In this document: one piece after another, positions 1 through 15,312 of the stretch | How positions within the stretch are numbered: position 1 is the stretch's first letter | How the letters are laid out: the number at the start of each line of letters is the position of its first letter | NCBI GenBank assembly: GCA_964569025.1 | Contig: CAZMSQ010000007.1 | Coordinates: 32,940 to 96,939 of the forward strand | Reading direction: 5' to 3' | Source of the DNA: an uncultured Saprospiraceae bacterium | Lineage (GTDB): Bacteria; Bacteroidota; Bacteroidia; Chitinophagales; Saprospiraceae | Length of the DNA stretch: 64,000 nt | Notes under the pieces: generated by a model | The model's database searches: none | The model's input: the letters and a program-made list of their open reading frames with translations, nothing else | Told to the model about the DNA's origin: nothing | Program-made: the position numbers and the translations under genes

Positions 1-189
1 CTTGTTGCGGCAGGCTGTGCACTCCTGCTTCGTGCTGAATGGATAACCGGAAGTCTGCCAACGTACTACTTTGGAACGACACTACTCCTTGGTGGGGTCT
101 GGGTGAATGGAAACCTCCTTCCGCTGATTCGTCAATGGGTCATTCCGGGAGCATTTGATACCGAAACGCTGAGAAACGAAAATTCGTGA
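1..189 (+). CDS. 3' end of an upstream CDS (partial, hydrophobic C-terminus ...LLGGVWVNGNLLPLIRQWVIPGAFDTETLRNENS*); product unknown
   Basis: Frame-1 reading is open from base 1 to TGA at 187-189. The stop overlaps the downstream ATG (TGATG). No recognisable motif. Confidence 0.3.
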   Translation, partial: LVAAGCALLLRAEWITGSLPTYYFGTTLLLGGVWVNGNLLPLIRQWVIPGAFDTETLRNENS

Positions 190-461
190 TGCAAACTGTG
201 CATTTTACATCTGCCCTCAAGCGGTTTTTTCCTGATATTGAACCACAACACGTCGAAGGCCAGACCGTCGCAGAAGTGCTGGATAGGCTTGAAACCCAAT
301 ATCCCGGACTCAAATCATATCTCGTTACGGAAAATGGTGCGCTTCGTAAGCACATCAACATTTTTGTAGACGGCGACTTGATTTCAGACCGAGATACGCT
401 GACTGATCAGTTAGGCCAGAGTCAGGATATTCTCATTTTTCAAGCTCTCTCCGGAGGGTAA
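189..461 (+). CDS. MoaD/ThiS/CysO-family ubiquitin-like sulfur-carrier protein (ends ...ALSGG*)
   Basis: About 90 aa with a C-terminal Gly-Gly immediately before the stop, typical of MoaD/ThiS thiocarboxylate carriers. ATG at 189 (ORF track starts at GTG 186). Stop abuts the next gene. Confidence 0.65.
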   Translation: MQTVHFTSALKRFFPDIEPQHVEGQTVAEVLDRLETQYPGLKSYLVTENGALRKHINIFVDGDLISDRDTLTDQLGQSQDILIFQALSGG

Positions 462-1565
462 ATGCTATGTGCTGAAATGAACCGCAAACTTCTCGTGGCA
501 ACGTCAAAAGGTCTGGTTGTTTGGGACCGAAAAGGGCAAAAGGAATGGGTCGTCAGAGATGTCCACTTTCAGGGATTTCCAGTTTCGGTCATTTATGCAG
601 ACACCCGGCATCAAGTGTGGTGGGCTGGGGTCTCTCACCGGCACTGGGGTCAGAAATTGCATCGGTCGTTTGATGAGGGTAAGACATGGGATGAAATGCC
701 TGTGCCTGCATACCCTGACAAAGCCGAGTGGCGACCCGGAAAGGCTGCAGTCCTTAAGAAAGTGTGGACGATCAGCAGTGCAGGCCCGGATAAGCCTGAA
801 GGACTGTGGGTTGGCACAGAACCAGGAGGATTGTTTTACAGCAATGACTACGGACAATCATATACACTGGTTGAGAGTCTGTGGAATATGCCGGGCCGTA
901 TGGACCCAACCCAATGGTTTGGGGCAGGGCGCGATTTGCCGTTTATCCATTCCGTGGTAGTTGATCCGGCTGACAGCGATCATGTGTATATCGCGGTGAG
1001 CTGCGCTGGAATCTTCGAAACCACCGATGGCGGAGCAACGTGGGCAGCGAAGAATAAAGGACTCATCGCAGCCTATCTTCCGGACCCGCATGCTGAACAG
1101 GGCCATGACCCACATCTGCTGCTGGCTTGTACCTCCCACCCAAACGTGCTTTGGCAGCAAAACCACTGTGGGGTCTTCCGGACAGAAAATGGAGGGCAGC
1201 ACTGGTCGGATGTGTCAGATCCCAGAGGGTATGTGCATTATGGGTTTGCGCTCGCAGTAGATGAAAGTGATCCGCTCTCAGCCTGGGTGATTCCTGCAAT
1301 GAGCGATGATCAGCGCGTTCCGCCAAATCTGGCACTCCGGGTCTGCCGGACCAGAGATGGCGGAAAAACCTGGCAATCGCTTACCTCCGGATTGCCCGGA
1401 GAATGCTGTTTTGACATTGTCTTTCGACATGCTTTGGCTCGGCAGGGCTCATGCATGGCCTTCGGGTCAACCACCGGGAATCTGTTTTTCTCAGATAATG
1501 ACGGAGACTCATGGACGTGCCTGAGCCATGTGTTGGGCAGAGTCGAAACCGTTACTTTTGCTTGA
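462..1565 (+). CDS. BNR/Asp-box repeat beta-propeller protein (sialidase-like fold; function unknown)
   Basis: Six S-x-D-x-G-x-T-W-like Asp-box motifs: SFDEGKTW, SNDYGQSY, TTDGGATW, TENGGQHW, TRDGGKTW, SDNDGDSW. The ATG sits immediately after the MoaD-like stop, so the two are probably coupled. Confidence 0.65.
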   Translation: MLCAEMNRKLLVATSKGLVVWDRKGQKEWVVRDVHFQGFPVSVIYADTRHQVWWAGVSHRHWGQKLHRSFDEGKTWDEMPVPAYPDKAEWRPGKAAVLKKVWTISSAGPDKPEGLWVGTEPGGLFYSNDYGQSYTLVESLWNMPGRMDPTQWFGAGRDLPFIHSVVVDPADSDHVYIAVSCAGIFETTDGGATWAAKNKGLIAAYLPDPHAEQGHDPHLLLACTSHPNVLWQQNHCGVFRTENGGQHWSDVSDPRGYVHYGFALAVDESDPLSAWVIPAMSDDQRVPPNLALRVCRTRDGGKTWQSLTSGLPGECCFDIVFRHALARQGSCMAFGSTTGNLFFSDNDGDSWTCLSHVLGRVETVTFA

Positions 1566-1640
1566 AAAATTCTATTTTTAGAAAATAAATTCTAATTTCG
1601 AAATCTATTTTATTCATTTACCTTCTTAAATCTACACACC

Positions 1641-2510
1641 ATGATACCTGCTGCTTTTGACTACGCCGCCCCTGGGACGCTGGAGGAAGCCTTCGCGTTG
1701 CTGGAGGAGTACGGCGATGAAGCCAAGATTCTGGCAGGTGGCCACAGCCTGATTCCAATGATGAAGCTGCGATTTGCAGAGCCCGGGCGGTTGATTGACA
1801 TCAACAACATCCCGGGGCTTTCATACATCAAGGAAGAGGATGGTTACCTGAAAATCGGGGCAATGACCAGAGAATCCGACCTTGAAAGGTCCGATCTTAT
1901 CCCGGGGAAATATCAGATTTTCCTCGATGCCAGTAAGTTGATTGCTGACCCTCAGGTGCGGAATATGGGTACGATTGGGGGCAATATTGCACATGGAGAT
2001 GCGGCAAATGACCATCCTGCAGTTATGCTGGCAATGCGGGCAGAAGTGGTCATCAGCAGTTCGGAAGGATCGCGGGTTGTGCCGATCGATGAGTTTTTCT
2101 ATGGCTTCTACATGACAGCTGTGCAACCTCACGAAATTCTGACAGAAATCAGAATTCCAATACCGGGGCAGCATACCGGCAATGCATATCACAAACTTGA
2201 GCGCAAGGTCGGCGATTATGCAACAGCTGGCGTGGCAGCACAAATCGGTATGGATGCGCAAGGGGTTTGCACCTATGCCGGAATCGGGCTCACAAATGTC
2301 AATCCGGTGCCGATGGTTGCATCTCGTTCAGAGGAACTGTTGAAAGGCAATGTACTCACTGATGATCTCATCGCACAAGCTGCTCAGTATGCATCAGAAG
2401 ATTGCAATCCTTCATCAGACCTCCGTGGTGACGAAGATTTTAAGCGCGAAATGGTCAAAGTATTGACCAAGCGCATCATCAATAAAGCCATTGAAAGGGC
2501 GAAAGGGTAA
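1641..2510 (+). CDS. coxM: Carbon-monoxide dehydrogenase medium (FAD-binding) subunit, xanthine dehydrogenase family
   Basis: N-terminus [39 protein letters not shown] is the molybdopterin-dehydrogenase FAD-binding fold. Gene order M-S-L is typical of form I CODH. AT-rich promoter-like gap upstream (1566..1640). Confidence 0.9.
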
Positions 2511-2535
2511 TTATTTCAGACTAAAATCTCATCAG

Positions 2536-3039
2536 ATGACTCAACAGATTACACTCACCGTCAATGGTGAACAACACACCGTCGAGGTCGAACCACGGAC
2601 GCTTCTGGTTCACCTCATCCGCGAACAGCTTAGCATGACCGGTACTCATATCGGCTGCGACACCTCCAGCTGCGGAGCATGCACCATTCTGCTCGATGGT
2701 AAGTCCATCAAATCCTGCACCGTATTGGCCGTTCAGGCCAATGGGAAGGAAGTGATCACCGTCGAAGGACTGGCCACAACTGAAGGGTTGCACCCCATTC
2801 AGGAGGGCTTCAAGGAAAACCACGGACTCCACTGCGGATTCTGCACTCCCGGCATGATGCTGCGGGCTGTAGAGTTGCTCGAAGACAATCCCAATCCCAC
2901 CGAGGAGGAAATCCGCTGGGGAATTTCAGGGAATCTTTGCCGCTGTACCGGATACAATAATATCGTAAAGGCGATTCAATATGCCGGCGCGAAAATGCGC
3001 GGAGAGGAAACGCCATCTACTGAACCGGAATTCGTGTAA
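2536..3039 (+). CDS. coxS: Carbon-monoxide dehydrogenase small [2Fe-2S] subunit
   Basis: Two [2Fe-2S] cysteine motifs ([10 protein letters not shown]... and CGFCTPGM... NLCRCTGY). Start reassigned to ATG 2536 ([11 protein letters not shown]); the ORF-track start at 2491 would overlap coxM. Confidence 0.9.
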
Positions 3040-3090
3040 GTTCACGAATTGGTTCTCTTTCTTTTTTCACCATTCAAATACCTGCATACT

Positions 3091-5463
3091 ATGATACAGT
3101 GTAAAACCTCCAAGGAAATCAGCGGCATGGGGCACTCCATGAAGCGGAAGGAGGACGACCGCTTCATTCAGGGCAAGGGGAATTATGTCGATGACATAAA
3201 ATTGCCCGGCATGCTCTACATGGACATCGTCAGAAGCCCGTACGCCTACGCAAAAATTAAAAATATCAATGCTGAGCCTGCCCTTCAGATCCCCGGTGTT
3301 GTAGCTGTGGTAACCGGCAAAGATCTTGAAAAGTATAACCTGCACTGGATGCCGACGCTGATGTCGGATACACAGATGGTCCTGCCGACAGATACCGTCA
3401 TGTATCAGGCTCAAGAAGTAGCCGCCGTCATCGCTACCAGTAAATATGCGGCCCGGGACGGCCGCGAGGCAGTCCAGGTAGAATACGAAACCATGAAGCC
3501 GGTTGTCGACCCGTATAAGTCGCTCGATCCGGATGCCCCGGTGCTTCGTACTGACAAGGAAGGCAAAACCGATAATCACATCTGGCATTGGGAAGTGGGT
3601 GATAGAGACAAGACAGAGAAAGTCTTTTCGGATGCTGAAGTCGTCGTGAAAGAGCAGATGCACATTCCGCGAATTCATGTTTCTTCCATTGAAACCTGTG
3701 GTTGTGTGGCTGACTATGACAAAGTCAACAATCACCTGACGATGTACATGACTACGCAGGCACCGCACGCCATTCGTACCGTCATCGCACTGGTTGCCGG
3801 TCATGTAGGACTGACAGAAGAGAAAGTCAGAGTGATTTCTCCCGACATCGGGGGTGGATTCGGAGGGAAGGTGCCGGTGTATCCTGGGTATGTGATCGCT
3901 ATTGCCGTTTCATTCCTTGTTGGAAAGCCGGTGAAGTGGATTGAGGACCGGAGCGAAAACCTTCAGGCCGATTCATTCGCCAGAGATTATCACATCACTG
4001 CTGAGATGGCCGCCACCAAGGAAGGGAAAATTCTCGGGACGCGTTTCAAAATCTTAGCAGATCACGGCTATACCGATGCATCTGCCAACCCGTCAAAGTT
4101 CCCGACCGGACTGTTTTCCATCGGTACCGGCTCCTACGATTATGATACAGCCTTCATGGAGGCCGATGCGGTATATACCAACAAGCCACCCGGAGGAGTC
4201 GCCTATCGTTGTTCTTTCCGTGTGACTGAGGCTGTGCATGCTATTGAACGAATTACAGACCGCCTTGCCCTTGAAATCGGAAAAGATCCGGCTCAGCTGC
4301 GGATGGAAAACTTTATCAAAAAAGAGGATTTCCCTTGGAAATCACCCACCGGTTGGGAGTATGACAGCGGTGATTATCACGCGGGTCTGAAGAAGGCAAT
4401 GGATGCCATTGAGTACGACAACCTGCGTGTTGAGCAGGCGGAGAAGCGCAAAAAAGGTGAATTGATGGGCATTGGAATTTCCACGTTCACCGAAATTGTT
4501 GGTGCAGGACCTTCGCGTGATTTCGATATCCTTGGTATCAAGATGTTCGACTCTGCTGAAATCAGGGTCCACCCAACAGGCAAGGCCATCGCACGGTTTG
4601 GTACAAAGTCGCAGGGACAGGGTCACGAGACAACCTATGCACAGATTATTGCCGAAGAGCTCGGCATTCCGGCTGAGCATATTCAGATTGAAGAGGGTGA
4701 CACAGATACTGCGCCCTACGGTCTGGGTACTTACGCCAGCCGGAGTACGCCCACCGCCGGAGCGGCTGCAGCAATGGCAGCCCGCAAGTTGCGTGATAAG
4801 GCCAAAAAAATTGCAGCTTACCTGCTGGAGGTCTCTGAAGATGACCTCGAATGGGAGCCCGGCAAGTTTTTTGTCAAGGGGGCACCTGAAAAGGTGAAGA
4901 CCATTCAGGAAATTGTCTTCGCTGCGTACACCAACCACCCGCTGGGCATGGAGGCAGGATTTGAAGCGACCCACTACTATGATCCTCCAAACTTGACATT
5001 CCCCTCCGGAGCTTATATCTGCGTGGTTGATATCGACAAGGAGACCTACGAAATCAAGGTGCGCCGATTCGTAGCCATCGATGACTGCGGGAATATCATT
5101 AACCCGATGATCGTACAGGGTCAGGTGCACGGCGGTCTGACACAGGGCCTCGCTCCTGCCATGTACGAAGAGCTTATTTACGATGAAGACGGCAATATCC
5201 TGAACGGAACCCTGATGGACTATCTTGTGCCGACTGCGGTCGAGTCACCTAACTGGGAAACCGGCCACACCGTGACACCGTCGCCCCACCACCCGATTGG
5301 TGCCAAAGGTGTAGGAGAATCCCCGACAGTGGGAGCTCCGCCGGCTATTGCCAATGCCATCGTTGATGCCCTTTCTCCATACGGGATTACCCACCTGGAT
5401 ATCCCGATCACGCCCTACAAAATCTGGAAGGCGCTGAAGGAAAAGGGCGTGTCTCTCGCCTGA
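3091..5463 (+). CDS. coxL: Form I aerobic carbon-monoxide dehydrogenase large (Mo-Cu, molybdopterin cytosine dinucleotide) subunit
   Basis: Xanthine dehydrogenase family molybdopterin-binding large subunit. The form-I active-site signature VAYRCSFR is encoded at 4198..4221. Start is uncertain: ATG 3091, 3127 (MGHSMKRKEDDRFIQGKGNYVDD) or 3139. Confidence 0.9.
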   Translation: MIQCKTSKEISGMGHSMKRKEDDRFIQGKGNYVDDIKLPGMLYMDIVRSPYAYAKIKNINAEPALQIPGVVAVVTGKDLEKYNLHWMPTLMSDTQMVLPTDTVMYQAQEVAAVIATSKYAARDGREAVQVEYETMKPVVDPYKSLDPDAPVLRTDKEGKTDNHIWHWEVGDRDKTEKVFSDAEVVVKEQMHIPRIHVSSIETCGCVADYDKVNNHLTMYMTTQAPHAIRTVIALVAGHVGLTEEKVRVISPDIGGGFGGKVPVYPGYVIAIAVSFLVGKPVKWIEDRSENLQADSFARDYHITAEMAATKEGKILGTRFKILADHGYTDASANPSKFPTGLFSIGTGSYDYDTAFMEADAVYTNKPPGGVAYRCSFRVTEAVHAIERITDRLALEIGKDPAQLRMENFIKKEDFPWKSPTGWEYDSGDYHAGLKKAMDAIEYDNLRVEQAEKRKKGELMGIGISTFTEIVGAGPSRDFDILGIKMFDSAEIRVHPTGKAIARFGTKSQGQGHETTYAQIIAEELGIPAEHIQIEEGDTDTAPYGLGTYASRSTPTAGAAAAMAARKLRDKAKKIAAYLLEVSEDDLEWEPGKFFVKGAPEKVKTIQEIVFAAYTNHPLGMEAGFEATHYYDPPNLTFPSGAYICVVDIDKETYEIKVRRFVAIDDCGNIINPMIVQGQVHGGLTQGLAPAMYEELIYDEDGNILNGTLMDYLVPTAVESPNWETGHTVTPSPHHPIGAKGVGESPTVGAPPAIANAIVDALSPYGITHLDIPITPYKIWKALKEKGVSLA

Positions 5464-5480
5464 TCAAATTGCACAAAACC

Positions 5481-5526
5481 GGGAGGGAGCTGTTCGGTAT
5501 CGCCGAATCTCCCTCCCACATTTTCT
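5481..5526 (+). terminator. GC-rich hairpin (GGGAGGGAG...CTCCCTCCC) followed by a T-rich tract, between coxL and coxG; possible intrinsic terminator or attenuator
   Basis: Inverted repeat 5481-5489 / 5509-5517 with an inner TTCGG/CCGAA pairing, followed by ACATTTTCT. Confidence 0.4.
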
Positions 5527-5573
5527 GACCCATTCGAAATGGCCCGAGGGCCATTTAAAAATTCTCGTGCGTT

Positions 5574-6083
5574 ATGAAAGCTACGTTTAATAAAGTCTTT
5601 ACAGTCAACGAACCCGTTGAAAAGGTGTGGGATTACCTCAGCGATCCCAAGAAAGTCGTAACCTGCGTGCCTGGGGCAACGCTTGTTGATCAGATTGATG
5701 ACGATAATTACAAGGGGGAGGTAACCCTGAAGTTCGGCCCCATCAAAGCAAAATATGCCGGACAGATTACCTTTCTCGAACGTGATGGGAACGCCCATAA
5801 GATGGTGATGCAAGGCAAAGGACTCGATTCAAAAGGCAAGGGAAGTGCTGATATGCTGATGAACGGCCTGGTCGAGGAAAAGGACGGTGCCACTCAGGTG
5901 ACAGCCAGCATGGAAGTCTCTGTCACTGGTATGCTCGCCCAATTCGGATCCAGACTCATCAATGATGTCACGGATTCCGTATTCGACAAATTTATCCAAA
6001 ACTTTAAGGATAAGCTCGCCGGTAAAGAAGTTGACAATACAATGACTGCCGGATCCATGCTCAAAGGGATGTTTAAGAGATAA
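5574..6083 (+). CDS. coxG: CoxG-like carbon monoxide dehydrogenase subunit G (SRPBCC ligand-binding fold)
   Basis: N-terminus MKATFNKVFTVNEPVEKVWDYLSDPKKVVTCVPGA matches the CoxG family. Position in the cox cluster supports the call. Confidence 0.8.
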   Translation: MKATFNKVFTVNEPVEKVWDYLSDPKKVVTCVPGATLVDQIDDDNYKGEVTLKFGPIKAKYAGQITFLERDGNAHKMVMQGKGLDSKGKGSADMLMNGLVEEKDGATQVTASMEVSVTGMLAQFGSRLINDVTDSVFDKFIQNFKDKLAGKEVDNTMTAGSMLKGMFKR

Positions 6084-6199
6084 CTGATCTTCCGCCTGAC
6101 ACTTCTGCCGAAACTATCACAGCAAAACTTTCTTTGCAAATAAGTAAGCTCGTGGGGGTGTCTGGCGGAGATGTTTGCTCTTTAGAATTAAACAGTCAC

Positions 6200-7090
6200 A
6201 TGGATTATCTGAACGATACGTTACAACTGACAGAGGGTTTTGACCGCCAGAAATATCTGGTGGACGATGAGCTCGCAACCATTCTGTTTCTGATGATGAA
6301 GTTGCAGAAGCCCCTTCTGCTTGAGGGAAATCCTGGGGTTGGGAAAACAGAAGTTGCAAACGTTCTGGCTGGTTTTCTGGATACACCCCTGATCCGCCTC
6401 CAATGTTATGAGGGGCTTGATGTGCACTCTGCCGTGTATGAGTGGAATTACCAGAAGCAACTCCTTTCAATTAAAATTCAGGAGGGCATCGACCGGTCTG
6501 AAGCAGATAAGGAAGCGCATATTTTTGGAGAAGACTTCTTGCTGAAAAGGCCACTTCTGCAAGCAATAACCGCGGCCACCAAGGCACCGGTTCTGTTGAT
6601 TGATGAAGTAGATCGCGCCGACGAAGAGTTTGAGGCCTTTCTGCTTGAGCTGCTCTCTGCATTTCAAATCAGCATCCCAGAAATGGGTACCATCAAGGCC
6701 ATTCACAAACCATTTGTCGTACTCACCTCCAACCGGACCAGAGAGTTGAGTGACGCCCTGAAACGGAGGTGCCTGTATCATTGGGTGAATTATCCGGATC
6801 AGGAACGGGAAATCCGTATTGTGAGCAAGCACCTTCCGACAATTGATGCTCAGCTTGCAGAGACCTTGGTAAAAGTGGTAGGCGTGCTCCGCTCACGCAA
6901 GTTGAACAAGGCGCCGGGCATTGCTGAAACACTCGATTGGGCTTCGGGGCTGCTCGCCCTTGGATTTGAAAACCTTACAGAAGAAAGCATGTCCAAAACG
7001 CTCGGCTGCGTGCTCAAGTCAGCAGATGACCTAGAACGGATTAAAGCGGAAGGCCTTGGCGTTTTGCTCGCTGATATTCCAGTTTCCTGA
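6200..7090 (+). CDS. coxD: MoxR-like AAA+ ATPase CoxD (maturation of the CODH Mo-Cu centre)
   Basis: Walker A LLEGNPGVGKTEVA and a MoxR-type AAA core. Start placed at ATG 6200 (about 296 aa, the usual CoxD length); the ORF track begins at 6134. Confidence 0.8.
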   Translation: MDYLNDTLQLTEGFDRQKYLVDDELATILFLMMKLQKPLLLEGNPGVGKTEVANVLAGFLDTPLIRLQCYEGLDVHSAVYEWNYQKQLLSIKIQEGIDRSEADKEAHIFGEDFLLKRPLLQAITAATKAPVLLIDEVDRADEEFEAFLLELLSAFQISIPEMGTIKAIHKPFVVLTSNRTRELSDALKRRCLYHWVNYPDQEREIRIVSKHLPTIDAQLAETLVKVVGVLRSRKLNKAPGIAETLDWASGLLALGFENLTEESMSKTLGCVLKSADDLERIKAEGLGVLLADIPVS

Positions 7091-7095
7091 TTCCC

Positions 7096-8241
7096 ATGCC
7101 GGAGCACCACCATTTTACAAACTATGGATCACTGAAAGAGGCACTCATTGCCTTTGGTCAGTTGGCACGTGATAACGGCCTGAAGGTGGGCGTGCAGGAA
7201 ACTCTGGATGCCCTCATTGCTGCGCGGGAAGGGGTGATTATTGACCTGCGTGCCATGAAGTTTGCGCTTAAGGCCCTGTATTGTTGTAGCGAGGAAGACA
7301 GTGATGTCTTTGATGATCTCTTTGATTGGTTCTGGAATAAACCCAGAAATGCCGTGAAGAGCCACATTACCATGAAAAACCGGTCAAATCTGGTCAAGCG
7401 CTCAGCTGCATCGGTGGTCATGCTTGGCACAGGAAAGCAAAAAAACGGCCAGGAAGAGGAGTCAAAAAATACATCAGGCGCCAACGCAGTTGAACGCCTG
7501 CGAAAAACAGATTTCGCCAGTCTATCGGAAATCGACAGCCAATGGCTCGAGGAAATCGCCATGAAACTCTGGAAGCAGATGAGCCTGCGCCTCAAACGCA
7601 AACTGCGCTCGTCACCTGGCCGTGGGCAACTCGACCTGCGGCGTACAATCCGTCAGTGCATTGCTCACGGAGGTGACCCCATTGACTTATTCATAAAAAC
7701 CCGCAAGCCAAAACGCCAGAGGCTGATTGTCCTCCTTGATGTCAGTGGTTCAATGGACAAGTACAGTTTTTTTCTTCTGCGGTTCCTTTGCGCACTGAGC
7801 GCCCATTTTGAGCGCATCGAGGCCTTTTTATTCAGCACTCACCTCGTCCGTATCTCCCCCTGGCTAAATGCCCGCAATCTGGATGCGACGTTTCGCGAAC
7901 TTTCAGCCAGGGCTGACAATTGGTCAAGCGGTACCCGCATCGGAGAGTGCTTCCGCTCATTCAATGAAGAATATGCGAAGCGAATCCTAAACGGTCACTC
8001 GACAGTCATTATCTTGTCCGATGGTCTTGACACAGGATCGCCTGATTTGCTGGCCTCAGAGCTCAAGCGAATCAAGTTGCGCACCCGTCAGTTGCTGTGG
8101 CTCAACCCTCTGAAGGGGATGTCCGGATATCAGCCTGTGCAACAAGGTATGAGTGCAGCCTTGCCGCAGGTCGATGTGTTTGAGTCCGCACACAATCTTG
8201 ACAGCATTCTCGAACTGGAAAATTTCTTGCTGAATGTTTAA
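7096..8241 (+). CDS. coxE: CoxE, von Willebrand factor A domain protein
   Basis: VWA MIDAS motif LLDVSGSM. Lies directly after coxD with a 5-bp gap. Confidence 0.8.
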   Translation: MPEHHHFTNYGSLKEALIAFGQLARDNGLKVGVQETLDALIAAREGVIIDLRAMKFALKALYCCSEEDSDVFDDLFDWFWNKPRNAVKSHITMKNRSNLVKRSAASVVMLGTGKQKNGQEEESKNTSGANAVERLRKTDFASLSEIDSQWLEEIAMKLWKQMSLRLKRKLRSSPGRGQLDLRRTIRQCIAHGGDPIDLFIKTRKPKRQRLIVLLDVSGSMDKYSFFLLRFLCALSAHFERIEAFLFSTHLVRISPWLNARNLDATFRELSARADNWSSGTRIGECFRSFNEEYAKRILNGHSTVIILSDGLDTGSPDLLASELKRIKLRTRQLLWLNPLKGMSGYQPVQQGMSAALPQVDVFESAHNLDSILELENFLLNV

Positions 8242-9217
8242 TGAATTTCTCAAAAAAGTCCAGTCTCTTCACCAACAGCGTGTCCCCTTTGCCATGGCCT
8301 TCGTTGTGAACCGCCAGGTTCCATCATCCGGGAAGCCCGGAGATAAGGCAGTTATCGAGCAGGATGGCACAATCACCGGCTGGATTGGCGGAGGGTGCAC
8401 ACGGGGGATTGTCCTCAAAGAAGCTGCAGATGCCATCCGTGACGGAAAACCACGGATGCTCCGAATTAGCCCTGATCAGGATACCTCACCAAATCCAGGA
8501 GTGATGGATTATACAATGACCTGCCACTCTGGTGGCACCGTAGAACTCTACATTGATCCCGTCCTGCCAAGGCCGGAAATCCTCATTTTCGGCCGGTCGC
8601 ATGTTGCCCGTTCGCTCTCGAGGCTGGCCAAAGCGATGGACTACCACGTCACCGTGGCGTGCAAGGGAGCCGACTCAGTGCATTTTCCGGATGCCGACGA
8701 GTTGCGGGAAGCCCCCGTCGAGGCCCAATCTGCCCGGTCAAATACCTTTGCTGTGGTTTGTACCCAGGGTGAAGATGATGAAACTCATTTGATGCAGGCA
8801 ATCAGGAGTGGGGCAGGTTATGTTGCTTTTGTAGCCAGTCGCCGAAAGGCAAATGCTATTTTTCAGACGCTACGAAGTTTTGATGTCTCATTCGATGAGC
8901 TGCGTGAGATTCATACCCCGGCGGGTCTTGACATCAATGCAAAGCTTCCCGAAGAGGTCGCCGTCAGCATACTTGCACAGATTGTGTCCCATATCAGGAA
9001 TGAGAGTATTCAGGATTCTGCTGAGAAAAAGAGTGCCCATGAGCCAGCTGAAAACTCGGCATACTTCGTGAATCCAGTATGTCAGGTGCCTGTCGAGAAA
9101 AAGACTGCAAAATATGTTGTCCAATTTCAGGAAAGAGATTATTACTTTTGTTGTGACGGTTGCAAAGTTGCCTTTGAGGCTGATCCTGAAAAATATGCCT
9201 TGCCTGAGCCGGTATGA
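8234..9217 (+). CDS. coxF: XdhC/CoxF/CoxI-family maturation factor with a fused C-terminal YHS/TRASH metal-binding domain
   Basis: XdhC_CoxI N-terminal region (GWIGGGCTRGIVLKEAADAIRDGKPRMLRI). XdhC Rossmann-like C-domain. Extra C-terminal segment NPVCQVPVEKKTAKYVVQFQERDYYFCCDGCKVAFEADPEKYA matches the YHS consensus. Overlaps coxE by 8 nt. Confidence 0.8.
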   Translation: MFNEFLKKVQSLHQQRVPFAMAFVVNRQVPSSGKPGDKAVIEQDGTITGWIGGGCTRGIVLKEAADAIRDGKPRMLRISPDQDTSPNPGVMDYTMTCHSGGTVELYIDPVLPRPEILIFGRSHVARSLSRLAKAMDYHVTVACKGADSVHFPDADELREAPVEAQSARSNTFAVVCTQGEDDETHLMQAIRSGAGYVAFVASRRKANAIFQTLRSFDVSFDELREIHTPAGLDINAKLPEEVAVSILAQIVSHIRNESIQDSAEKKSAHEPAENSAYFVNPVCQVPVEKKTAKYVVQFQERDYYFCCDGCKVAFEADPEKYALPEPV

Positions 9218-9828
9218 TATGCGCCATTCTTCTCGCAGCAGGCACTTCTTCGCGGATGGGGTCATCCAACAAGCTTTTGCTTGATGTTGGCAACGGTCAG
9301 CCTCTGGTTCGGACAATGGCCGAGCAGTTGGCGGGAGCGCCATTTGACGAGGTGGTGGTAGTAACTGGCTTTGAGAGTGGGGATGTAAAATGTGCCTTGG
9401 AAGGGCTTCCGGTTCGGATTATCGAAAATCCCGCCTATGAATCCGGAATGACAACTTCCATTATTGCCGGTCTTAGAGCAATTGCACCGGACGCGCATTT
9501 TTTGGTGGGCCTGTCAGATATGCCATTGCTGACTGCCAAACATTACAAATTGCTGCTCGCAGAGTTTGAAGCGGCATTAATCGATACCGCCCACCCAATT
9601 GTAAAACCGTCACTGAACGGAGTCCCGGGTAATCCGGCAATCTTCCATGCAGTCTATCGAGAAGAGGTGCTCTCACTGACTGATCTCCATGCCGGATGTA
9701 AACCCGTTTTGCAGCATCATGCAGACAGTGTGATTCACCCAAAGGGACTTCCGGATGTGTTTTTTCTGGACATGGACCGTCCGGAAGAGTATCAGGAAAT
9801 GAGAATGCGGGTGAACCGCGAGGGATAA
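9214..9828 (+). CDS. mocA: MobA-like NTP transferase, probable molybdenum cofactor cytidylyltransferase (MocA-like)
   Basis: N-terminus ICAILLAAGTSSRMG is the nucleotidyltransferase P-loop of the MobA/MocA family. About 200 aa. Start overlaps the coxF stop (ATGA). Confidence 0.7.
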   Translation: MICAILLAAGTSSRMGSSNKLLLDVGNGQPLVRTMAEQLAGAPFDEVVVVTGFESGDVKCALEGLPVRIIENPAYESGMTTSIIAGLRAIAPDAHFLVGLSDMPLLTAKHYKLLLAEFEAALIDTAHPIVKPSLNGVPGNPAIFHAVYREEVLSLTDLHAGCKPVLQHHADSVIHPKGLPDVFFLDMDRPEEYQEMRMRVNREG

Positions 9829-9840
9829 TGCTTCGAAGAC

Positions 9841-10491
9841 ATGAAGCCAACAAAAAAACGGATACTTCTTGCTGCGAAGGACTGCTTCGCGACCAAAGGC
9901 GTTGCAGCAACAAGGCTTCAGGATATTGCCGAACTCGCAGGTATGAGTATCGGTAATATGGTTTACCACTTCCGTAATCAGGTTGAGATGCTGGAAGTAA
10001 TTTACACTAGCTTCCAACAGCGACAAGAAGAACTCCTACAGGATATTTGCCTAAGCCCGGTTTTTTCTAATATCGATGAGTATCTCCAGAATGCTTTTCA
10101 GCTCCATCAGGAATTTTTGTTTTTCCCCCTTCACACCCCGGAGGTGCTCAGTGCGTCGCCCCGAATTTCCTCTGAATGGCGTGAACATCTCCGGTGGAAG
10201 GACCTGCAGCTTGAGTTGATGTTGCGCTTCAATCAGGCCAGAGGCGCTTTAAGTTGGGATGAGGAAACATATCCTGTCGGTGATTTGGCAGTTTTATGGA
10301 GGCGGACAATCGACGGTTGGCCCATGCATCGGGTGGTTGAGCAAAAAAACCTCGATGATTTTTTGGCTTTTCGTAAGAGTGCATGGTCAGTGCTCCTCTC
10401 CCTGATCACACCTGAAGCCCGTCCTGAATACCTAAGGCTTCACTTTACTTCAGCGCCCCAAGTACAGAACACCGTAATTGATGAAGAATGA
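9841..10491 (+). CDS. TetR/AcrR family transcriptional regulator
   Basis: N-terminal HTH KKRILLAAKDCFATKGVAATRLQDIAELAGMSIGNMVYHFRNQ. Its stop overlaps the start of the next gene (ATGA). Confidence 0.85.
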   Translation: MKPTKKRILLAAKDCFATKGVAATRLQDIAELAGMSIGNMVYHFRNQVEMLEVIYTSFQQRQEELLQDICLSPVFSNIDEYLQNAFQLHQEFLFFPLHTPEVLSASPRISSEWREHLRWKDLQLELMLRFNQARGALSWDEETYPVGDLAVLWRRTIDGWPMHRVVEQKNLDDFLAFRKSAWSVLLSLITPEARPEYLRLHFTSAPQVQNTVIDEE

Positions 10492-11963
10492 GCGAGGCGC
10501 TGCTTGAAAATATCGTTGCGAAGCGCGTTGTGCTTGAAAAAGAGCTTGGGATCGACCTATACATTGACAGGAACGATATTGTACAGCGGGCATCTTGTTC
10601 TGTGACTCATCATCAAGGCGAAAGAGGAATTCTTGTCGGTAGAAATCCGCGTGAGATTCCGTACGTGGCTTCCCATTTGTTTGGATACTCCGGAGGTTCT
10701 CATCAGCAAGCCGCGACCATGGCTCTTGAGCATGCATGGGGTGCAAAGGTGCCCAAGAATGCGCGACTGCTCAGAGCCATCGGACAAGCTGCAGAAATTA
10801 TCCAGAGCTCTGTCAGGTGGATTTACACAGCATTTGGGCCGGGCTTGGCCCACCCTGCATTTTCAGGGCTTCAAGATTCAGAATATATCCGGGACCATTT
10901 TTTAGCGTTCAAAGGCACTTCTTTCCGCAGGGGAATCCTCGGCGCCACGTTCCCCATGTCGGTATATGCAGCAATTGCCGGACAATGGCCGCAGGCCCGG
11001 TTTGCCTGCCCCGGAGGCATCGGAACGATACCTGATGCAGCGGCCCTTGCCAGGGTTTCCGGCCTCCTGAGTCGGTTTCGTACCGAGTGGCTGGAAGGGG
11101 TTCTATTACATACCTCTGTAGATGAGTTTCTCGACATTCGTACGTCGGACCAACTCTTTAATTGGATAGATTCTGCCGGGACTCACCCCAAAAGCGATTT
11201 GGCTGCCATGCTGAGTGGTGCCTTGGAAAGAGGGTACCTCAACTTAGGAGACCACTCAGCGCCAACCCTGACGTATGGTGCATTTCATGTCAGTGATCAG
11301 GAAGAAGAATCGATTCCGGAGTTACTCTCATCCCATTCTTCCATTCCCGGGCTGTGTATCAACGGTAGTTCTGTTGATGTATTGAGCAGGGCATCCGTTC
11401 GAAGCTGTATCGAGTCGTTGGGGCAATCTCATCAAACCTGGTATCAGGGCCAACCGACAGAGGTTGGCCCGCTTGCACGCATGCTTTCCCTCCATGCTGT
11501 CCGCCCGGAAGGCAATCTGATTGGTCACATGGTATCTTGGTCAGGTAAAAATGCCTTTGCCAGAATTCTTGCGAGAATCCGCGAGATTATGGTTCTTGAA
11601 AACCGAATCAGATTCTGGCTGGCACAAATTGATCCAGATGAACCATGGAATCTGCCTGTAGAAGATAGAGATGGCTGGGGACTCGGTCTGACGGAAGCGC
11701 CGCGAGGAGCACTCGCCCATTTGGTTCGGATCAGAGATGGGAAAGTGGCGGATTATCAGATTCTGCCCCCAACTTTGCTGAACGTTTCCTCCGGATCCGG
11801 AGACTCTCCCATCGAGTCTGCCCTCAGCCAATTGGAAATCCCGAATAGAAATAGCCTCCATGAGGTTGGAATCATTGCTCGTTCTTTTGATGCCAGTGTG
11901 TCCTGTAAGGTCAGGCTGTTGAAACATCCCTCCGGAAAGGTGATCTTGACGTCAGATGAATAA
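10488..11963 (+). CDS. [NiFe]-hydrogenase large-subunit homologue with degenerate (cysteine-depleted) metal-binding motifs
   Basis: Read against E. coli HyaB by eye, the conserved blocks line up. [50 protein letters not shown] matches [56 protein letters not shown] and [23 protein letters not shown] also match. C-terminal [15 protein letters not shown] stands against LHSFDPCLACSTHVL. The L1 CxxC is replaced by FGYS and the L2 DPCxxC by DASVSC. Confidence 0.75.
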   Translation: [491 protein letters not shown]

Positions 11964-12143
11964 ACATGACAAATGGACGGCGAAAAGTGTATGAACCTTC
12001 GGTAAAATTGATTGTACTACAAATGATTGTTGTTCTATGAACGAGTATGTGATTATTTTAGAGTGCAGTGAGTCGTGCTGCTAAAGATTTAATTTCGAAG
12101 TTTTTTTCAAAAAGTCTACTTTCCCACACAGAATATCTGATTT

Positions 12144-12404
12144 ATGTGTCTTGCCATCCCCGGACGAATCAAAAGAATTGATCGATCAGATCCATTCTTG
12201 AAAAGAGCCCATGTGGCCTTCGGAACCCTTATGAAAGAGGTGTGCCTTGATATGACCCCTTTGGCTCGCGTAGGCGATTATGTCCTTGTGCATGCGGGCG
12301 TGGCAATTAACGTGGTGAATGAAGAAGAAGCGATGCGCACATTCTTATACCTTGAAGAATACGGGGGTCTTGAAGACCTCTTGCCGGAGAGAGACCAGAC
12401 CTGA
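12144..12404 (+). CDS. hypC: Hydrogenase maturation factor HypC/HupF
   Basis: Canonical N-terminus MCLAIPGRI and about 86 aa. Confidence 0.85.
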   Translation: MCLAIPGRIKRIDRSDPFLKRAHVAFGTLMKEVCLDMTPLARVGDYVLVHAGVAINVVNEEEAMRTFLYLEEYGGLEDLLPERDQT

Positions 12405-12407
12405 TTC

Positions 12408-13526
12408 ATGAAATTTCTCGAAGAATACAGGGACCCGCAATTGGCGGAGCAATACCTCAACCGTCTCCATTCAGTAACCACCGGAGAGTGGGTAATTATG
12501 GAATTCTGCGGGGGGCAAACCCACAGTCTTGTCAAAAACGGCCTCATTGATTTGCTTCCCGCCGGTGTAACAATGGTGCATGGTCCGGGGTGTCCAGTCT
12601 GTGTGACCCCACTCTCTATGATAGACGCAGCCATTCGCCTTGCTGAGGAAAAAGGGGTTATTTTGTGTTCATTCGGAGACATGCTGAGGGTGCCAGGCTC
12701 TTCTCAAAATTTATTGGAAGCCAAAGCAAAAGGTGCCGCAGTCCGTTTTTTTTACTCGCCTATGGAAGCTGTCGAATTGGCGCGTAAACATCCAGATCGG
12801 GAGGTCGTATTTTTTGCGGTTGGTTTTGAAACGACCGCACCTGCAAACGCCCTGTCAGTGCTTTATGCCAAACGGCTGGGTCTGAAAAACTATTCGCTCC
12901 TGACTTCTCATGTGTTGGTTCCTCCGGCTATTTCTGCGATAGTCGAAGATGAGGAGGCCTGTGTAGATGGTTTTCTCGGAGCAGGAAATGTCTGTTCGGT
13001 AATGGGACTCAAAGAGTACGAGCAATTAATCGACAGATACAATAAACCCTTGGTGGTGACAGGGTTTGAGCCCGTTGACCTCCTTCAGGGTATTCTCATG
13101 ACGGTGACACAACTTGAACGGGGGGAGTCGAAACTTGAAAACCAATACAGCCGGGTGGTGCCATATGAAGGGAACCCCGAAGCGCAGGCAGCGGTATATG
13201 AAGTCTTTGAGCGGTGTGACCGCGAGTGGAGAGGAATTGGCGTACTCCCGGGAAGTGGACTTCAGGTGACTGAAGAATATGCTGGATTTGATGCGATCAG
13301 AAAGTTTGGGCTCACGTTCAGATATGTGGCTGAGCCATCTGCCTGTATGGCAGGTGAAATTTTGAAAGGCACGAAGAAGCCAGTTGATTGCCCCCACTTC
13401 GGAACCACGTGCACGCCAGAAAACCCCCTTGGGGCTCCGATGGTTTCTTCAGAAGGGGCATGCGCCGCATACTATCACTTTCGCGCTATTTGCAGCGCTG
13501 ATTCACACCCAATACGTACCTTCTGA
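12408..13526 (+). CDS. hypD: Hydrogenase maturation factor HypD
   Basis: CGxH (EFCGGQTH), GPGCPVCV, FETT (VGFETTAPA), and a C-terminal Cys cluster plus SSEGACAAYY. Collinear with E. coli HypD along its full length. Confidence 0.9.
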   Translation: MKFLEEYRDPQLAEQYLNRLHSVTTGEWVIMEFCGGQTHSLVKNGLIDLLPAGVTMVHGPGCPVCVTPLSMIDAAIRLAEEKGVILCSFGDMLRVPGSSQNLLEAKAKGAAVRFFYSPMEAVELARKHPDREVVFFAVGFETTAPANALSVLYAKRLGLKNYSLLTSHVLVPPAISAIVEDEEACVDGFLGAGNVCSVMGLKEYEQLIDRYNKPLVVTGFEPVDLLQGILMTVTQLERGESKLENQYSRVVPYEGNPEAQAAVYEVFERCDREWRGIGVLPGSGLQVTEEYAGFDAIRKFGLTFRYVAEPSACMAGEILKGTKKPVDCPHFGTTCTPENPLGAPMVSSEGACAAYYHFRAICSADSHPIRTF

Positions 13527-14316
13527 CCACGTCAATGTGGTTTGCCGTTTCAGCTCCCGGGAATCCGGTGATGTGGCTGTTGTTCAATTCCCGTTCTGCG
13601 ATCCTTACGAACTCCGCAGAAAGAGGAAGATACGACCAGTGCCACTTTTCTTCCCGATATCCGCTTTCACGGCCGTCTCCATATGCTGTGTATGGCCTGC
13701 AGAATCCGTATTCGGAAGCGTGTGTTTCAAGCCATTGGAAGAGTTTTTGGCCCTGACCTGTTTCGAAATATGAATTGTCGAGCGCATTCAAGTCAATGTC
13801 AGTCCCCCAGTGATGGCGAGAGGTTCCTGGCATGGCACTGTATTCAAGGATGCGCAAAGCGCGTTCTTTTGGGTCAGCAATATCGAGTGCGGCATTGGTG
13901 CCGTCACTAAGTAGTCGAGCCCCCCCCCATTTGGCAGCCCAAATCGATTGCTGATATTCAAAATTCCTTGTGGCCGACAAAATACGTAGCTCATGGCCCG
14001 CCTGAGCTGCATCCCGGTGCATCCGAATGAAAGCTTCCAGCGCTTCTTTTCGTAAAAACATCCCATCGCGGGTGGCAAATTGACGGGGTATCGGGGCAAA
14101 TAAAGGGTGTTTCGCCGGTTCAAAATGGCCGCTCAGGTATGCAATGCTGGTCATCGTCGAGTCTTTTTGGCGAGTAATTGGTAGACACTCTTGCCCTTCT
14201 TTTCTCTCTTGCGTTGGCATCTGCCCTGGATCATCAACTTGCCTTTGCCCGCATGCTGCGAATGTGAAAGTTGCCATGGTAGCCGAAATTAGACAAAAGT
14301 ATCTGATATGCTTCAT
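13486..14316 (-). CDS. Peptidase M15 family (VanY-like D-Ala-D-Ala carboxypeptidase), lipoprotein
   Basis: Lipoprotein signal MKHIRYFCLISATMATFTFAAC. Zn-peptidase motif SRHHWGTDIDL. Start placed at ATG 14316. The 3' end overlaps hypD convergently by 41 nt. Confidence 0.7.
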   Translation of the reverse strand: MKHIRYFCLISATMATFTFAACGQRQVDDPGQMPTQERKEGQECLPITRQKDSTMTSIAYLSGHFEPAKHPLFAPIPRQFATRDGMFLRKEALEAFIRMHRDAAQAGHELRILSATRNFEYQQSIWAAKWGGARLLSDGTNAALDIADPKERALRILEYSAMPGTSRHHWGTDIDLNALDNSYFETGQGQKLFQWLETHASEYGFCRPYTAYGDGRESGYREEKWHWSYLPLSAEFVRIAERELNNSHITGFPGAETANHIDVVRRYVLGVNQRCK

Positions 14317-14479
14317 CAGGCCTGATGGTTTTGCTCTTGGTAAATTTCCATCCATTTTTATTCAAATTAAATGAAATGTATACTCACCTGATAAGATATG
14401 CTCAATATGCAGTTTTTCTTGCAATTCTTCACTTCGCACCGGTTGCAAGTGGTGGGCAGGGGCAATCAATGTTTAGATC

Positions 14480-14704
14480 ATGAATAGAAAAATATTACGG
14501 TTTATTGGACTTGCATCACTTGTCATAACGGCATGGATTCTTGGCAGAATTTCAGGCATCCATGGCGTACAGCAAAAAAACGCGACGGCCAACCCCATCA
14601 GAAAATCAGACTCAATTCGAGATTCCCTTGTGCTCCGGGATTTGCTCTACAAACAAAATGTGAATGACCAGGACCAGCACGTGGGGTTGGAAAACAAGGA
14701 GTAA
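14480..14704 (+). CDS. Small hypothetical protein with an N-terminal signal peptide or transmembrane segment
   Basis: ORF only. Hydrophobic N-terminus LRFIGLASLVITAWILG. No homology recognised. Confidence 0.2.
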   Translation: MNRKILRFIGLASLVITAWILGRISGIHGVQQKNATANPIRKSDSIRDSLVLRDLLYKQNVNDQDQHVGLENKE

Positions 14705-14811
14705 TGTCCAAAAAGTCCTGAGAAATGTGTATCTTTGCGTCCGCTTTTGTGGGGATGCTCCACTGAGTCATAGTCAATATCTTATTTTTTCACCTTTACG
14801 ATACTTCAATA

Positions 14812-15312
14812 ATGCGTCATTACGAAGTAACTTTCATCGTGGATCCAGTGCTGTCGGGCGATGAAATCAAGTCGGCAGCAACCACGTACGTCGATCACCT
14901 CAAAGGGGAGGGGAGCGAAATTGTACACATTAACGAATTGGGCCTCCGTGAACTTGCCTATCCAATCAACAAGCGCAATTCCGGGGTCTATTACTGTGTT
15001 GAGTTTACCTCAGAGACAGGCGATTTTATTCCAAAACTCGAGTTGGCATTCCGCCGGGACGAGCGCATCATGCGCTTCCTGACAGTGAAACTTGACAAGT
15101 ATGGTGTGAAATACAACGCTGACAAGCGCGCAGGCCTGATTAATGAGTTCAAACCGAAAAAGAAAAAATCGGAAGAACCTGAAAGAAAGGAGCGCGACAG
15201 GCGAGATCGCAAGAAAGAGGCCCCTGCGAAGGAGGCCCCTGCAAAGGAGGGAGCTTCTGTAAAAGAAGGCACTCCTGAAGCGAGCGCTACAGAGTCCGGA
15301 TCACCTGAATAA
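14812..15312 (+). CDS. rpsF: 30S ribosomal protein S6, with a charged low-complexity C-terminal tail
   Basis: MRHYEVTFIVDP... is the S6 N-terminus. The S6-S18-L9 gene order supports the call. Confidence 0.9.
   Translation: MRHYEVTFIVDPVLSGDEIKSAATTYVDHLKGEGSEIVHINELGLRELAYPINKRNSGVYYCVEFTSETGDFIPKLELAFRRDERIMRFLTVKLDKYGVKYNADKRAGLINEFKPKKKKSEEPERKERDRRDRKKEAPAKEAPAKEGASVKEGTPEASATESGSPE

Follow-up and report, generated by a model that had tools for sequence, protein, structure and literature searches.

Why would a bacterial gene cluster for a form I Mo-Cu carbon monoxide dehydrogenase (CODH) end in genes for a regulator, a protein with the fold of a hydrogenase large subunit and two hydrogenase maturation factors? 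The question is raised by a 64-kb stretch of DNA from a Saprospiraceae bacterium, the whole of which is called the window here, in which the cox genes are followed on the same strand by tetR-hydL*-hypC-hypD, where hydL* denotes the gene for a [NiFe]-hydrogenase large-subunit paralog. Aerobic oxidation of carbon monoxide (CO) and H2 at trace levels is now regarded as a major survival strategy, the regulation of Mo-CODH is poorly understood, and CO oxidisers of the Bacteroidota are known almost only from metagenomes. The reading that we favour, with moderate confidence, is a co-regulated CODH cluster with a TetR repressor, in which HydL* is a Ni-free cofactor holder of the HoxV/HupK kind. The linkage of a CODH with HypCD and a pseudo-hydrogenase, together with the operator that they share, is unexpected and directly testable.

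Genes were called from the open reading frame (ORF) map and from Pfam/NCBIfam scans. By these calls the window encodes a complete set of structural and maturation proteins for a form I CODH. The form I signature AYRCSFR (VAYRCSFRVTEA) is present in CoxL, which scores 1235.7 bits against TIGR02416, for which the cut-off is 991.15, so that the form I assignment made in a first-pass annotation of the stretch is upheld; CoxM, CoxS and the maturation genes coxD (AAA_5), coxE (VWA_CoxE) and coxF (XdhC_CoxI, XdhC_C) are adjacent to coxL. CoxD is an AAA+ ATPase with a role in active-site maturation, and coxG encodes a quinone or membrane adaptor in other CO oxidisers. CoxF ends in a YHS domain (residues 280–322) that is foreign to classical CoxF and possibly handles metal, perhaps Cu; the same XdhC-YHS architecture is found in all related Bacteroidota loci. 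Only the sub-clade of the window has a mocA gene between coxF and tetR (L017, L018, L026–28, L030–32; loci are cited by L numbers and proteins by P numbers).

Look-ups of the context of HydL* homologues gave about 20 independent loci, and a scan of one genome per GTDB species gave 14 more, all of them from Saprospiraceae, Lewinellaceae or unclassified Bacteroidota metagenome-assembled genomes. When the window proteins were mapped onto these loci, the order ThiS-BNR-coxM-coxS-coxL-coxG-coxD-coxE-coxF-tetR-hydL*-hypC-hypD was recovered wherever the contig was long enough, and none of the loci with enough flank had hydL* without cox. In L014 the order is rearranged, with tetR-hydL*-hypC-hypD upstream of coxMS, and the linkage is kept. 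The distant sub-families P0122 and P0125 (loci L024 and L025) retain (coxF-)tetR-hydL*-hypC-hypD, and an additional gene lies between hydL* and hypC in L026 and L027. The genes that flank the cluster are unrelated from clade to clade.

Between clades the identity is highest for CoxL (92–93%), followed by CoxS (74–93%), CoxM (69–83%), CoxD (about 73%), HypD (67–76%), HypC (64–76%) and CoxE and CoxF (both about 60%). TetR (34–54%) and HydL* (38–50%) evolve faster than any other protein of the locus, and each shows extra divergence in the lineage of the window. Synonymous sites are at or near saturation even inside clades, and the order has therefore been conserved by selection across clades that have diverged this far. 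The first-pass annotation had proposed a comparison of gene neighbourhoods, and conserved synteny is what that comparison finds in the Saprospiraceae and Lewinellaceae; its view of the locus as an integrated unit rather than a chance adjacency gains support from this synteny and from the shared palindrome described below. The cluster is the Saprospiraceae/Lewinellaceae version of the form I CODH cluster, co-inherited and probably co-regulated.

The regulator is placed in the TetR family by its N-terminal helix-turn-helix domain (PF00440) and by a palindrome upstream of both coxM and the first gene of the cluster. Reading of the intergenic regions revealed this 18-bp palindrome, TTAGAAAATAAATTCTAA, 46 bp upstream of the coxM ATG, where it is the sole match in the 64 kb even with one mismatch allowed (expected 0.25). 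One exact copy lies upstream of coxM in 10 further loci whose contigs span this gap (L001, L003, L006, L007, L009, L011–13, L016 and L026), of which nine are distinct, L001 and L013 being the same contig. The exceptions are L002, where the palindrome has two mismatches, and L027, where the BNR region is disrupted and there is none within one mismatch. A second palindrome is located 40–60 bp upstream of the first gene, which encodes a membrane protein, in L019, L020 and L027; in the organism of the window this is about 330 bp to the left of window position 1. In L014, where tetR leads, a one-mismatch palindrome precedes tetR. The tetR gene of the window has no operator of its own and is only 12 bp from mocA. 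A full operator before hypC was considered and rejected, since only a poorly palindromic match with two mismatches is present there.

The same palindrome is found in the canonical hydrogenase cluster of the Saprospiraceae (L021 and L022), which has the order tetR (PF00440 and PF13972)-hucS-hucL-hycI-...-hypA with hypB-hypC-hypD-hypE on the opposite strand, and whose large subunit matches that of mycobacterial Huc (7UUS) at E = 1e-200. Four exact copies are present in L021, and likewise in L022: one ahead of a small gene that comes before tetR, a tandem pair in the interval from tetR to hucS, and one in front of hypB-C-D-E (L021 positions 3604–3621, 4741–4758, 4765–4782 and 15872–15889). Across about 390 kb of fetched loci there was no other exact match. 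The small gene preceding tetR in L021 and L022 encodes an uncharacterised 119-aa protein. From the co-occurrence of regulator and operator, TTAGWA-N6-TWCTAA is probably the binding site of this TetR subfamily, and because the palindrome is shared by cox and hydrogenase promoters it points to common regulation, in which one repressor type would control both the Huc hydrogenase and the CODH clusters.

The canonical cluster also suggests where the tail of the CODH cluster came from. Compared over their full lengths, the cox-linked and canonical proteins are 65% identical for HypD, 57% for HypC, 37% for HydL* and 28–35% for TetR, whose recognition helix is nearly identical to that of its paralog, the L021 TetR. 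Since the cox-linked proteins are homologous to those of the canonical cluster, the tail is a reduced derivative of the family's own Huc-type (group 2a) hydrogenase cluster, from which the small subunit, the endopeptidase and hypA/B/E/F have gone. The nearest relatives of HydL* outside its family are 530-aa Bacteroidota proteins with an intact RICGICGGSH...DSCLVCTVH.

HydL* has kept the fold of its ancestors and lost much of the metal site. In the Protein Data Bank its sequence is best matched by the Huc large subunit (7UUS, E = 3e-50), in an alignment where the Cys replacements can be seen, and its AlphaFold2 model (pLDDT 85, predicted template modelling score 0.88) shows a complete large-subunit fold, for which the top Foldseek match is 7utd_A (template modelling score 0.84). 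If the four metal ligands of a hydrogenase, RxCGxC ... DPCxxC, are written C1 C2 / C3 C4, the family consensus is F C / C C (FGFC...DxCxxC), with three Cys of four and C1 invariably Phe. Sub-families P0122 and P0125 read F C / S C and so keep exactly the two Fe-bridging Cys, while the closest relative, L023, reads F S / C C. The window protein reads F S / S C (F65, S68 / S470, C473, within HLFGYSGGSH and DASVSC), leaving one Cys of four, and has Y67 instead of the Phe of the family. The wider family shows no variation at C473. Of 15 near-identical strain variants of the window protein, two (P0391 and P0400) carry C473F (codon 11904–11906) and have no Cys ligand left. The Arg of EAPRGALAH and a PPT..N motif are retained, and a segment of about 35 residues present in Huc-type enzymes is missing.

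The partners of a hydrogenase are absent too. No small-subunit gene (PF01058/PF14720) was found in the locus, the 64-kb window or the related cox-linked loci, whereas the canonical cluster L021 does have a small subunit and HycI. After Cys4 the window protein continues CKVRL (CxVN/K/E in the family), with no His for C-terminal processing, and there is no HycI-type gene in the locus. As modelled, HydL* is a large subunit in its fold and departs from a hydrogenase in its Cys ligands, its missing small subunit and its processing site. A working or sensory hydrogenase was considered and rejected on the absence of Cys ligands and small subunit: with C1 invariably Phe and no subunit for electron transfer, HydL* cannot be a hydrogenase. 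P0015, P0023, P0392 and others are publicly labelled “nickel-dependent hydrogenase large subunit” or “coenzyme F420-reducing hydrogenase alpha subunit”, and such labels would lead to the overcounting of H2-oxidation capacity in metagenomic surveys. Unrelated large-subunit-like lineages (P0126, P0127, P0128, P0199, P0047 and P0048) have also lost Cys ligands partly or wholly, with motifs such as RICGVC...DTCLVS, RLTGAASGAQ and RISGIS...DPNITA; degenerate large subunits seem, from their motifs, to have arisen several times.

The selection acting on hydL* differs from that on its neighbours. In every lineage the gene has kept an unbroken reading frame, about 490 aa long, despite the saturated synonymous sites, its ratio of nonsynonymous to synonymous divergence (dN/dS) is 0.05–0.17 in two other clades, and the alignment has 76 invariant columns. 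A split of hydL in L023 was considered as a frameshift or pseudogene and rejected, as it is a 10-N scaffold gap. Within the species of the window, the corresponding ratio among strain variants (pN/pS), calculated from pooled, non-independent comparisons, is about 0.30 for hydL* (34 synonymous and 32 nonsynonymous changes), 0.04 for tetR, 0.05 for hypD and 0 for hypC, and coxM/S/L/G/D/E together have no nonsynonymous changes against 67 synonymous ones. By these ratios hydL* is not a pseudogene, yet it is the least constrained gene of the locus. In the window species HydL* appears to be drifting under relaxed constraint, with cox, tetR and hypCD strongly constrained.

HypC and HypD look fully functional from their sequences. 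HypC starts MCLAIPG, giving it the N-terminal Met-Cys, and scores 61.1 bits against TIGR00074 (cut-off 48); HypD scores 468.7 bits against TIGR00075 (cut-off 192.8) and has CGGQTH, GPGCPVC, GFETT and the C-terminal Cys, with the same CGGQTH in the canonical Saprospiraceae HypD. In hydrogenase biogenesis HypC is the chaperone of the Fe(CN)2CO group and HypD the Fe-S scaffold of the HypCD complex.

A client for such a pair that is not itself a hydrogenase has precedents in HoxV of Cupriavidus necator and HupK of Rhizobium leguminosarum, non-catalytic large-subunit-like proteins that carry Ni-free Fe(CN)2CO and work with HypC-type chaperones and HypD in aerobes (PMC12134894, PMC3534401). Because both Fe-bridging Cys, the Arg and the Thr are kept in most lineages, and HypCD seems functional, HypCD most likely supplies HydL* in those lineages with a Ni-free centre of the Fe(CN)2CO type, in the manner of HoxV and HupK. 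It would then be a non-catalytic holder, serving as a storage, scaffold or signal protein, in a CO/H2 trace-gas regulon. TetR would repress the promoters upstream of the first gene and coxM by binding TTAGWA-N6-TWCTAA, and tetR, if read through from the cox promoter, would be autoregulated. In the window species, where three of the four Cys are gone, the capacity of HydL* for a cofactor would be largely lost. How HydL*/HypCD would be tied biochemically to CO oxidation is conjectural, and a holder of the HoxV/HupK kind is our best guess.

Several observations weigh against this reading. Neither the locus nor the window contains hypE or hypF, on which the CN ligands depend. Magalon and Bock reportedly found in 2000 that HypC of E. 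coli docks on the large subunit at its first N-terminal Cys, and the equivalent Cys is missing throughout the HydL* family. The number of Cys varies by lineage (three, two, two and one of four), which is odd for a conserved metal site. The operator and TetR are paired by co-occurrence only, in a TetR subfamily that is large (1147 hits). The module also appears not to be strictly dependent on CODH, as a variant with an apparent deletion of most of cox keeps it. In this variant, a contig from JGI sample 3300041081 (L030), window position 677 is joined straight to 8460, so that 7,782 bp (678–8459) with most of BNR, coxMSL, coxG, coxD, coxE and the 5′ end of coxF are absent and mocA-tetR-hydL*-hypCD is intact. 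An independent assembly, SRR29936174 (L031), begins exactly at window 8460, and the junction probably marks a CODH-deletion allele that occurs naturally in the population. Finally, HypCD is constrained in the window species though HydL* has lost its ligands there; HypCD therefore cannot serve HydL* alone in this species and must have another client.

That last point strengthens a rival explanation, in which HydL*, as a scaffold like HoxV/HupK, and the HypCD complex do ordinary maturation work for a real hydrogenase encoded elsewhere and lie beside cox only through the shared TetR regulon. We consider this unlikely, though it accounts for much of what is seen: HypD and HypC stay close to their canonical counterparts with very low dN/dS, constraint on HypCD persists where the Cys of HydL* are gone, cox and hydrogenase clusters have one operator in common, HoxV and HupK set a precedent, and Saprospiraceae do have Huc-type hydrogenases with full hyp sets. 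However, the canonical cluster already encodes its own hypC-hypD, the module is always beside cox and never beside a hydrogenase in the recovered loci, the window has no structural genes of a hydrogenase within 50 kb, and the NCBI accessions of cluster members fall in different genomes.

The position of tetR directly upstream of hydL* in every case, often with an ATGA overlap or a spacing of 2–17 nt, could instead mean that HypCD loads HydL* to make it a sensor of gas or redox state, which would signal CO, H2 or O2 status to the co-translated TetR by analogy with the group 2b hydrogenases; the module would then provide the signal input of the cox regulon. The rapid and extra-divergent evolution of this pair of proteins in the window lineage would fit such a partnership, the HydL* family derives from group 2 hydrogenases, which include known sensors, and the operator connects TetR to the cox promoters. 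Against this, the adjacency can be explained by loss of hucS, since in the canonical cluster the same kind of TetR precedes a normal hucSL; TetR proteins normally bind small ligands directly, and known sensor hydrogenases retain all four Cys and the small subunit. In the window species, moreover, tetR is tightly constrained while hydL* is relaxed and its last Cys is being lost, which lowers the case for a sensor because TetR there is seemingly independent of HydL*. We regard the sensor as distinctly improbable. Equally doubtful, to our mind, is a broader proposal, in which HydL* represents a new Ni-free class without a small subunit, has an Fe-carbonyl/cyanide centre built by dedicated HypCD and serves CO oxidation instead of a hydrogenase, either as the CO input to TetR or as a partner of the Mo-Cu enzyme in CO/CO2 handling; if true, HypCD and the large-subunit fold would thereby gain their first function apart from hydrogenase biogenesis and complex I.

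The losses in the tail might also be taken to mean that the module is a functionless, decaying remnant of a hydrogenase operon that was by chance a neighbour of cox in an ancestor and has been carried along since. The small subunit, protease and hypA/B/E/F have gone, the Cys appear to be lost stepwise (FC/CC to FS/CC in L023, F(Y)S/SC in the window and then C473F) and the pN/pS of hydL* is the highest in the locus. This is very unlikely given that hydL* is intact everywhere despite synonymous saturation, with the low dN/dS and invariant columns described above, that hypC and hypD are under very strong purifying selection, and that the linkage has outlasted both rearrangement (L014) and insertions (L026). 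Least credible of all is the recruitment of HypCD and HydL* to mature or protect CODH, by way of Fe, CO/CO2, cyanide-type ligands or thiol redox in Mo-S-Cu assembly, as we know of no CODH maturation step that requires HypCD-type chemistry, CODH clusters of other phyla work without the module, and the cox-deleted variant retains it intact. What speaks for recruitment is the strict linkage with coxDEF, the CoxF-YHS fusion and extra supply genes, which suggest a modified maturation, and reports that HypC binds Fe and CO2 and that HypD has a thiol/disulfide cascade (PMC12134894).

The layout of the locus is summarised in Table 1. The first-pass annotation was right about the unbroken plus-strand run and its junctions and wrong in its count, as the interval 186–13526 contains 14 genes where seventeen had been claimed; the left end is also truncated, the whole cluster comprising 15 same-strand genes of which the first is cut by the window edge. 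The ThiS and BNR genes adjoin without a gap (TAA ATG), coxE and coxF overlap by exactly 8 nt, an overlap kept in most loci, coxF/mocA and tetR/hydL* each overlap by 4 nt (ATGA), and a 3-nt spacer separates hypC from hypD, all as first described. The gaps of 75, 110 and 180 bp are likewise exact, and to call them the only three of any size was slightly generous; further gaps separate coxG from coxD (50–74 bp) and coxS from coxL (9–51 bp), according to start codon. For coxS the ORF list starts at TTG 2491, and the 167-aa start at 2536 was taken from gene calls in the same organism, in which the call for coxD is 310 aa.

Table 1. Features of the CODH cluster and its immediate surroundings, in window coordinates
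Feature	Position	Strand	Evidence or remark
First cluster gene, 3′ end	1–189	+	Small membrane protein with CPxC motif, 155 aa when complete
MoaD/ThiS-like sulfur-carrier gene	189–461 (start 186/189)	+	PF02597, E = 3.8e-8
BNR/Sortilin-type beta-propeller gene	462–1565	+	Pfam BNR, Sortilin-Vps10, PSII_BNR
Operator-like palindrome TTAGAAAATAAATTCTAA	1578–1595	.	TTAGWA-N6-TWCTAA match
Promoter-like motif TAATTTCGAA, copy 1	1593–1602	+	Exact 10-mer
coxM, FAD-binding medium subunit	1641–2510	+	PF00941, PF03450
coxS, [2Fe-2S] small subunit	2536–3039	+	PF01799, PF00111
coxL, form I Mo-Cu CODH large subunit	3091–5463 (ORF from 3049)	+	TIGR02416
Two stem-loops after coxL	5481–5517 and 5537–5556	+	RNA folding
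coxG, SRPBCC fold	5574–6083	+	PF06240, E = 2.5e-24
coxD, AAA+ ATPase	6134/6158–7090 (TTG 6134 or GTG 6158)	+	PF07728, PF00004
coxE, VWA-domain maturation factor	7096–8241	+	PF05762, E = 2e-58
coxF, XdhC family with C-terminal YHS	8234–9217	+	PF02625, PF13478, PF04945
mocA, molybdenum cofactor cytidylyltransferase-like	9214–9828	+	PF12804; TIGR03310 below cut-off
tetR-family regulator	9841–10491	+	PF00440, E = 3e-9
hydL*, [NiFe]-hydrogenase large-subunit paralog	10488–11963	+	PF00374 weakly; NCBIfam families far below cut-offs
TAATTTCGAA motif, copy 2	12090–12099	+	Exact 10-mer, 45 bp upstream of hypC
hypC	12144–12404	+	PF01455, TIGR00074, above cut-offs
hypD	12408–13526	+	TIGR00075
VanY-type peptidase gene	13486–14355	-	Convergent; 41-nt overlap with hypD end

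The conserved large gaps, the hairpin after coxL and a motif before hypC indicate that the cluster is probably not one operon. In the 110-bp gap, where a hairpin had been noted by the first-pass annotation, folding gives two strong ones with a minimum free energy of -43.6 kcal/mol (z = -5.1; none of 200 shuffles as good). Hairpins of differing sequence follow coxL in L002 (z = -7.4) and in L001, L011 and L012 (z = -2.7 to -3.3), while no clear hairpin is present in this gap in L007, so that they occur in three of four clades. Placed between structural and accessory genes, they probably act as an attenuator or stabilise the transcript. No significant RNA structure was detected in the 180-bp gap before hypC (z = +0.9), and an Rfam scan of positions 1–15000 at E <= 1 gave no match. 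The 10-mer TAATTTCGAA occurs exactly twice in the window (expected 0.15; at least two copies in none of 100 shuffles), and its first copy overlaps the right arm of the operator. The -7 promoter element of the Bacteroidota is TAnnTTTG, which TAATTTCGAA resembles, suggesting that the copy before hypC is an internal promoter. Scans for sigma-70 promoters (19 found, 14 expected) and intrinsic terminators (11 found, 15.5 expected) were uninformative, Bacteroidota promoters being outside the scan. On these features the locus is better described as two to four transcription units than as a single operon.

At the left end the cut first gene overlaps the start of the ThiS gene through GTGATG on the same strand. 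Its complete form, on a metagenome contig of the same organism (L019:733–1200), encodes the 155-aa CPxC membrane protein, which has no match to a Pfam family; a gene for 154–159 aa takes the same position in L001, L002 and L027. Beyond the first gene, on metagenome contigs of the same organism, lie a divergent XdhC/CoxI gene and, farther out, moaE (in L030). The MoaD/ThiS-like product ends in Gly-Gly (...ALSGG*), matches a SAMP1/MoaD-like NCBIfam family below cut-off, and is encoded at the same position in L001, L002, L011–13 and L016. The BNR propeller matches PDB 3b7f (E = 3e-53) and is 60–72% identical between clades; inspection of its N-terminus revealed no signal peptide, and the protein is predicted to be cytoplasmic. 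In L027, a strain-level variant, the ThiS frame (663–1825) runs into a tandem repeat and the BNR gene is absent, through either a repeat-mediated deletion or an assembly artefact.

Repeats occur elsewhere among the relatives without affecting gene order. A palindromic element of about 130 bp that the Lewinellaceae loci have in common, CTACCCGTCTAAGGTTGGACA...TGTCCAACCT.AGACGGG, enlarges their intergenic regions (L003/L006/L008/L010, the hydL-hypC gap of L009 and the tetR-hydL gap of L005), as do short tandem repeats of the CAATCAAA/CAATATAG and GGAATGAA types; in L026 an 18-mer tandem array, GGACGGACCACGGGAGAC, precedes coxM (1447–1640). Downstream of hypD the convergent VanY peptidase gene is followed by rpsF, rpsR and rplI, as the first-pass annotation had it, and L023 shares the overlap of VanY with hypD (41 nt, 13486–13526). 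The other 50 kb of the window hold housekeeping genes and lack both a hydrogenase small subunit and hypA/B/E/F. About 5 kb downstream of the locus (18759–21794) a 1011-aa protein is encoded that carries DUF7619 and a type IX secretion sorting tail; it appears unrelated to the cluster.

Besides the caution about annotation given above, the locus has two things to offer. TetR and TTAGAA-N6-TTCTAA are a testable repressor-operator pair that apparently links CODH and Huc clusters in one family, and the HydL* proteins form a series that loses its ligands stepwise (three, two, two, one and no Cys) with HypC and HypD conserved throughout, which bears on what HoxV-like Fe(CN)2CO storage proteins and HypCD do beyond classical maturation. 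In architecture and in its hypC/hypD neighbours HydL* fits HoxV and HupK. However, those proteins sit in complete hydrogenase clusters and pass their cofactor to a real large subunit, whereas HydL*, at about 490 aa (HupK is about 37 kDa), is closest to the Huc type and has no client hydrogenase nearby; neither family was among the Pfam/NCBIfam matches, and HydL* is at most a candidate member. Huc itself (Mycobacterium smegmatis group 2a, 7UUS/7UTD) is the best match of HydL*, and the Saprospiraceae cluster of its homologue shares the TetR type and the operator, but HydL* lacks Cys1 in all members, Cys2 and Cys3 in the window, the His after Cys4, the small subunit and the protease. The group 2b proteins HoxBC and HupUV are group 2 relatives with a regulatory role and no C-terminal processing; unlike the HydL* locus they have four Cys, a small subunit and histidine kinase signalling, none of which is present here.

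On the side of CO oxidation, the window resembles coxBCMSLDEFGHIK of Oligotropha carboxidovorans and coxMSL-coxG-coxDEF of Mycobacterium smegmatis in its coxMSL, AYRCSFR motif, coxG, CoxD, CoxE and CoxF, and resembles known cox clusters in having an extra XdhC/CoxI-like gene nearby and most genes on one strand. It differs from them in the head of CPxC membrane protein, MoaD/ThiS-like and BNR genes, in CoxF-YHS, and in the tail tetR-hydL*-hypC-hypD. The literature searched, including 2026 marine Mo-CODH surveys, holds no description of a hydrogenase-like/hypCD link with Mo-CODH, which is not proof that there is none. A physical clustering of CO-oxidation and hydrogenase genes in an aerobic carboxydotroph does have a parallel: Fuhrmann and colleagues reportedly described in 2003 the co-location of cox and hox genes on megaplasmid pHCG3 of O. 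carboxidovorans. The hox genes of pHCG3, however, encode a complete functional hydrogenase with a full maturation set, whereas the hydrogenase side of the present locus amounts to no more than a regulator, a degenerate large subunit and HypCD. Set beside these systems, the cox part of the locus is a standard form I cluster with lineage-specific additions, and the novelty, as far as the searched literature goes, lies in the tail.

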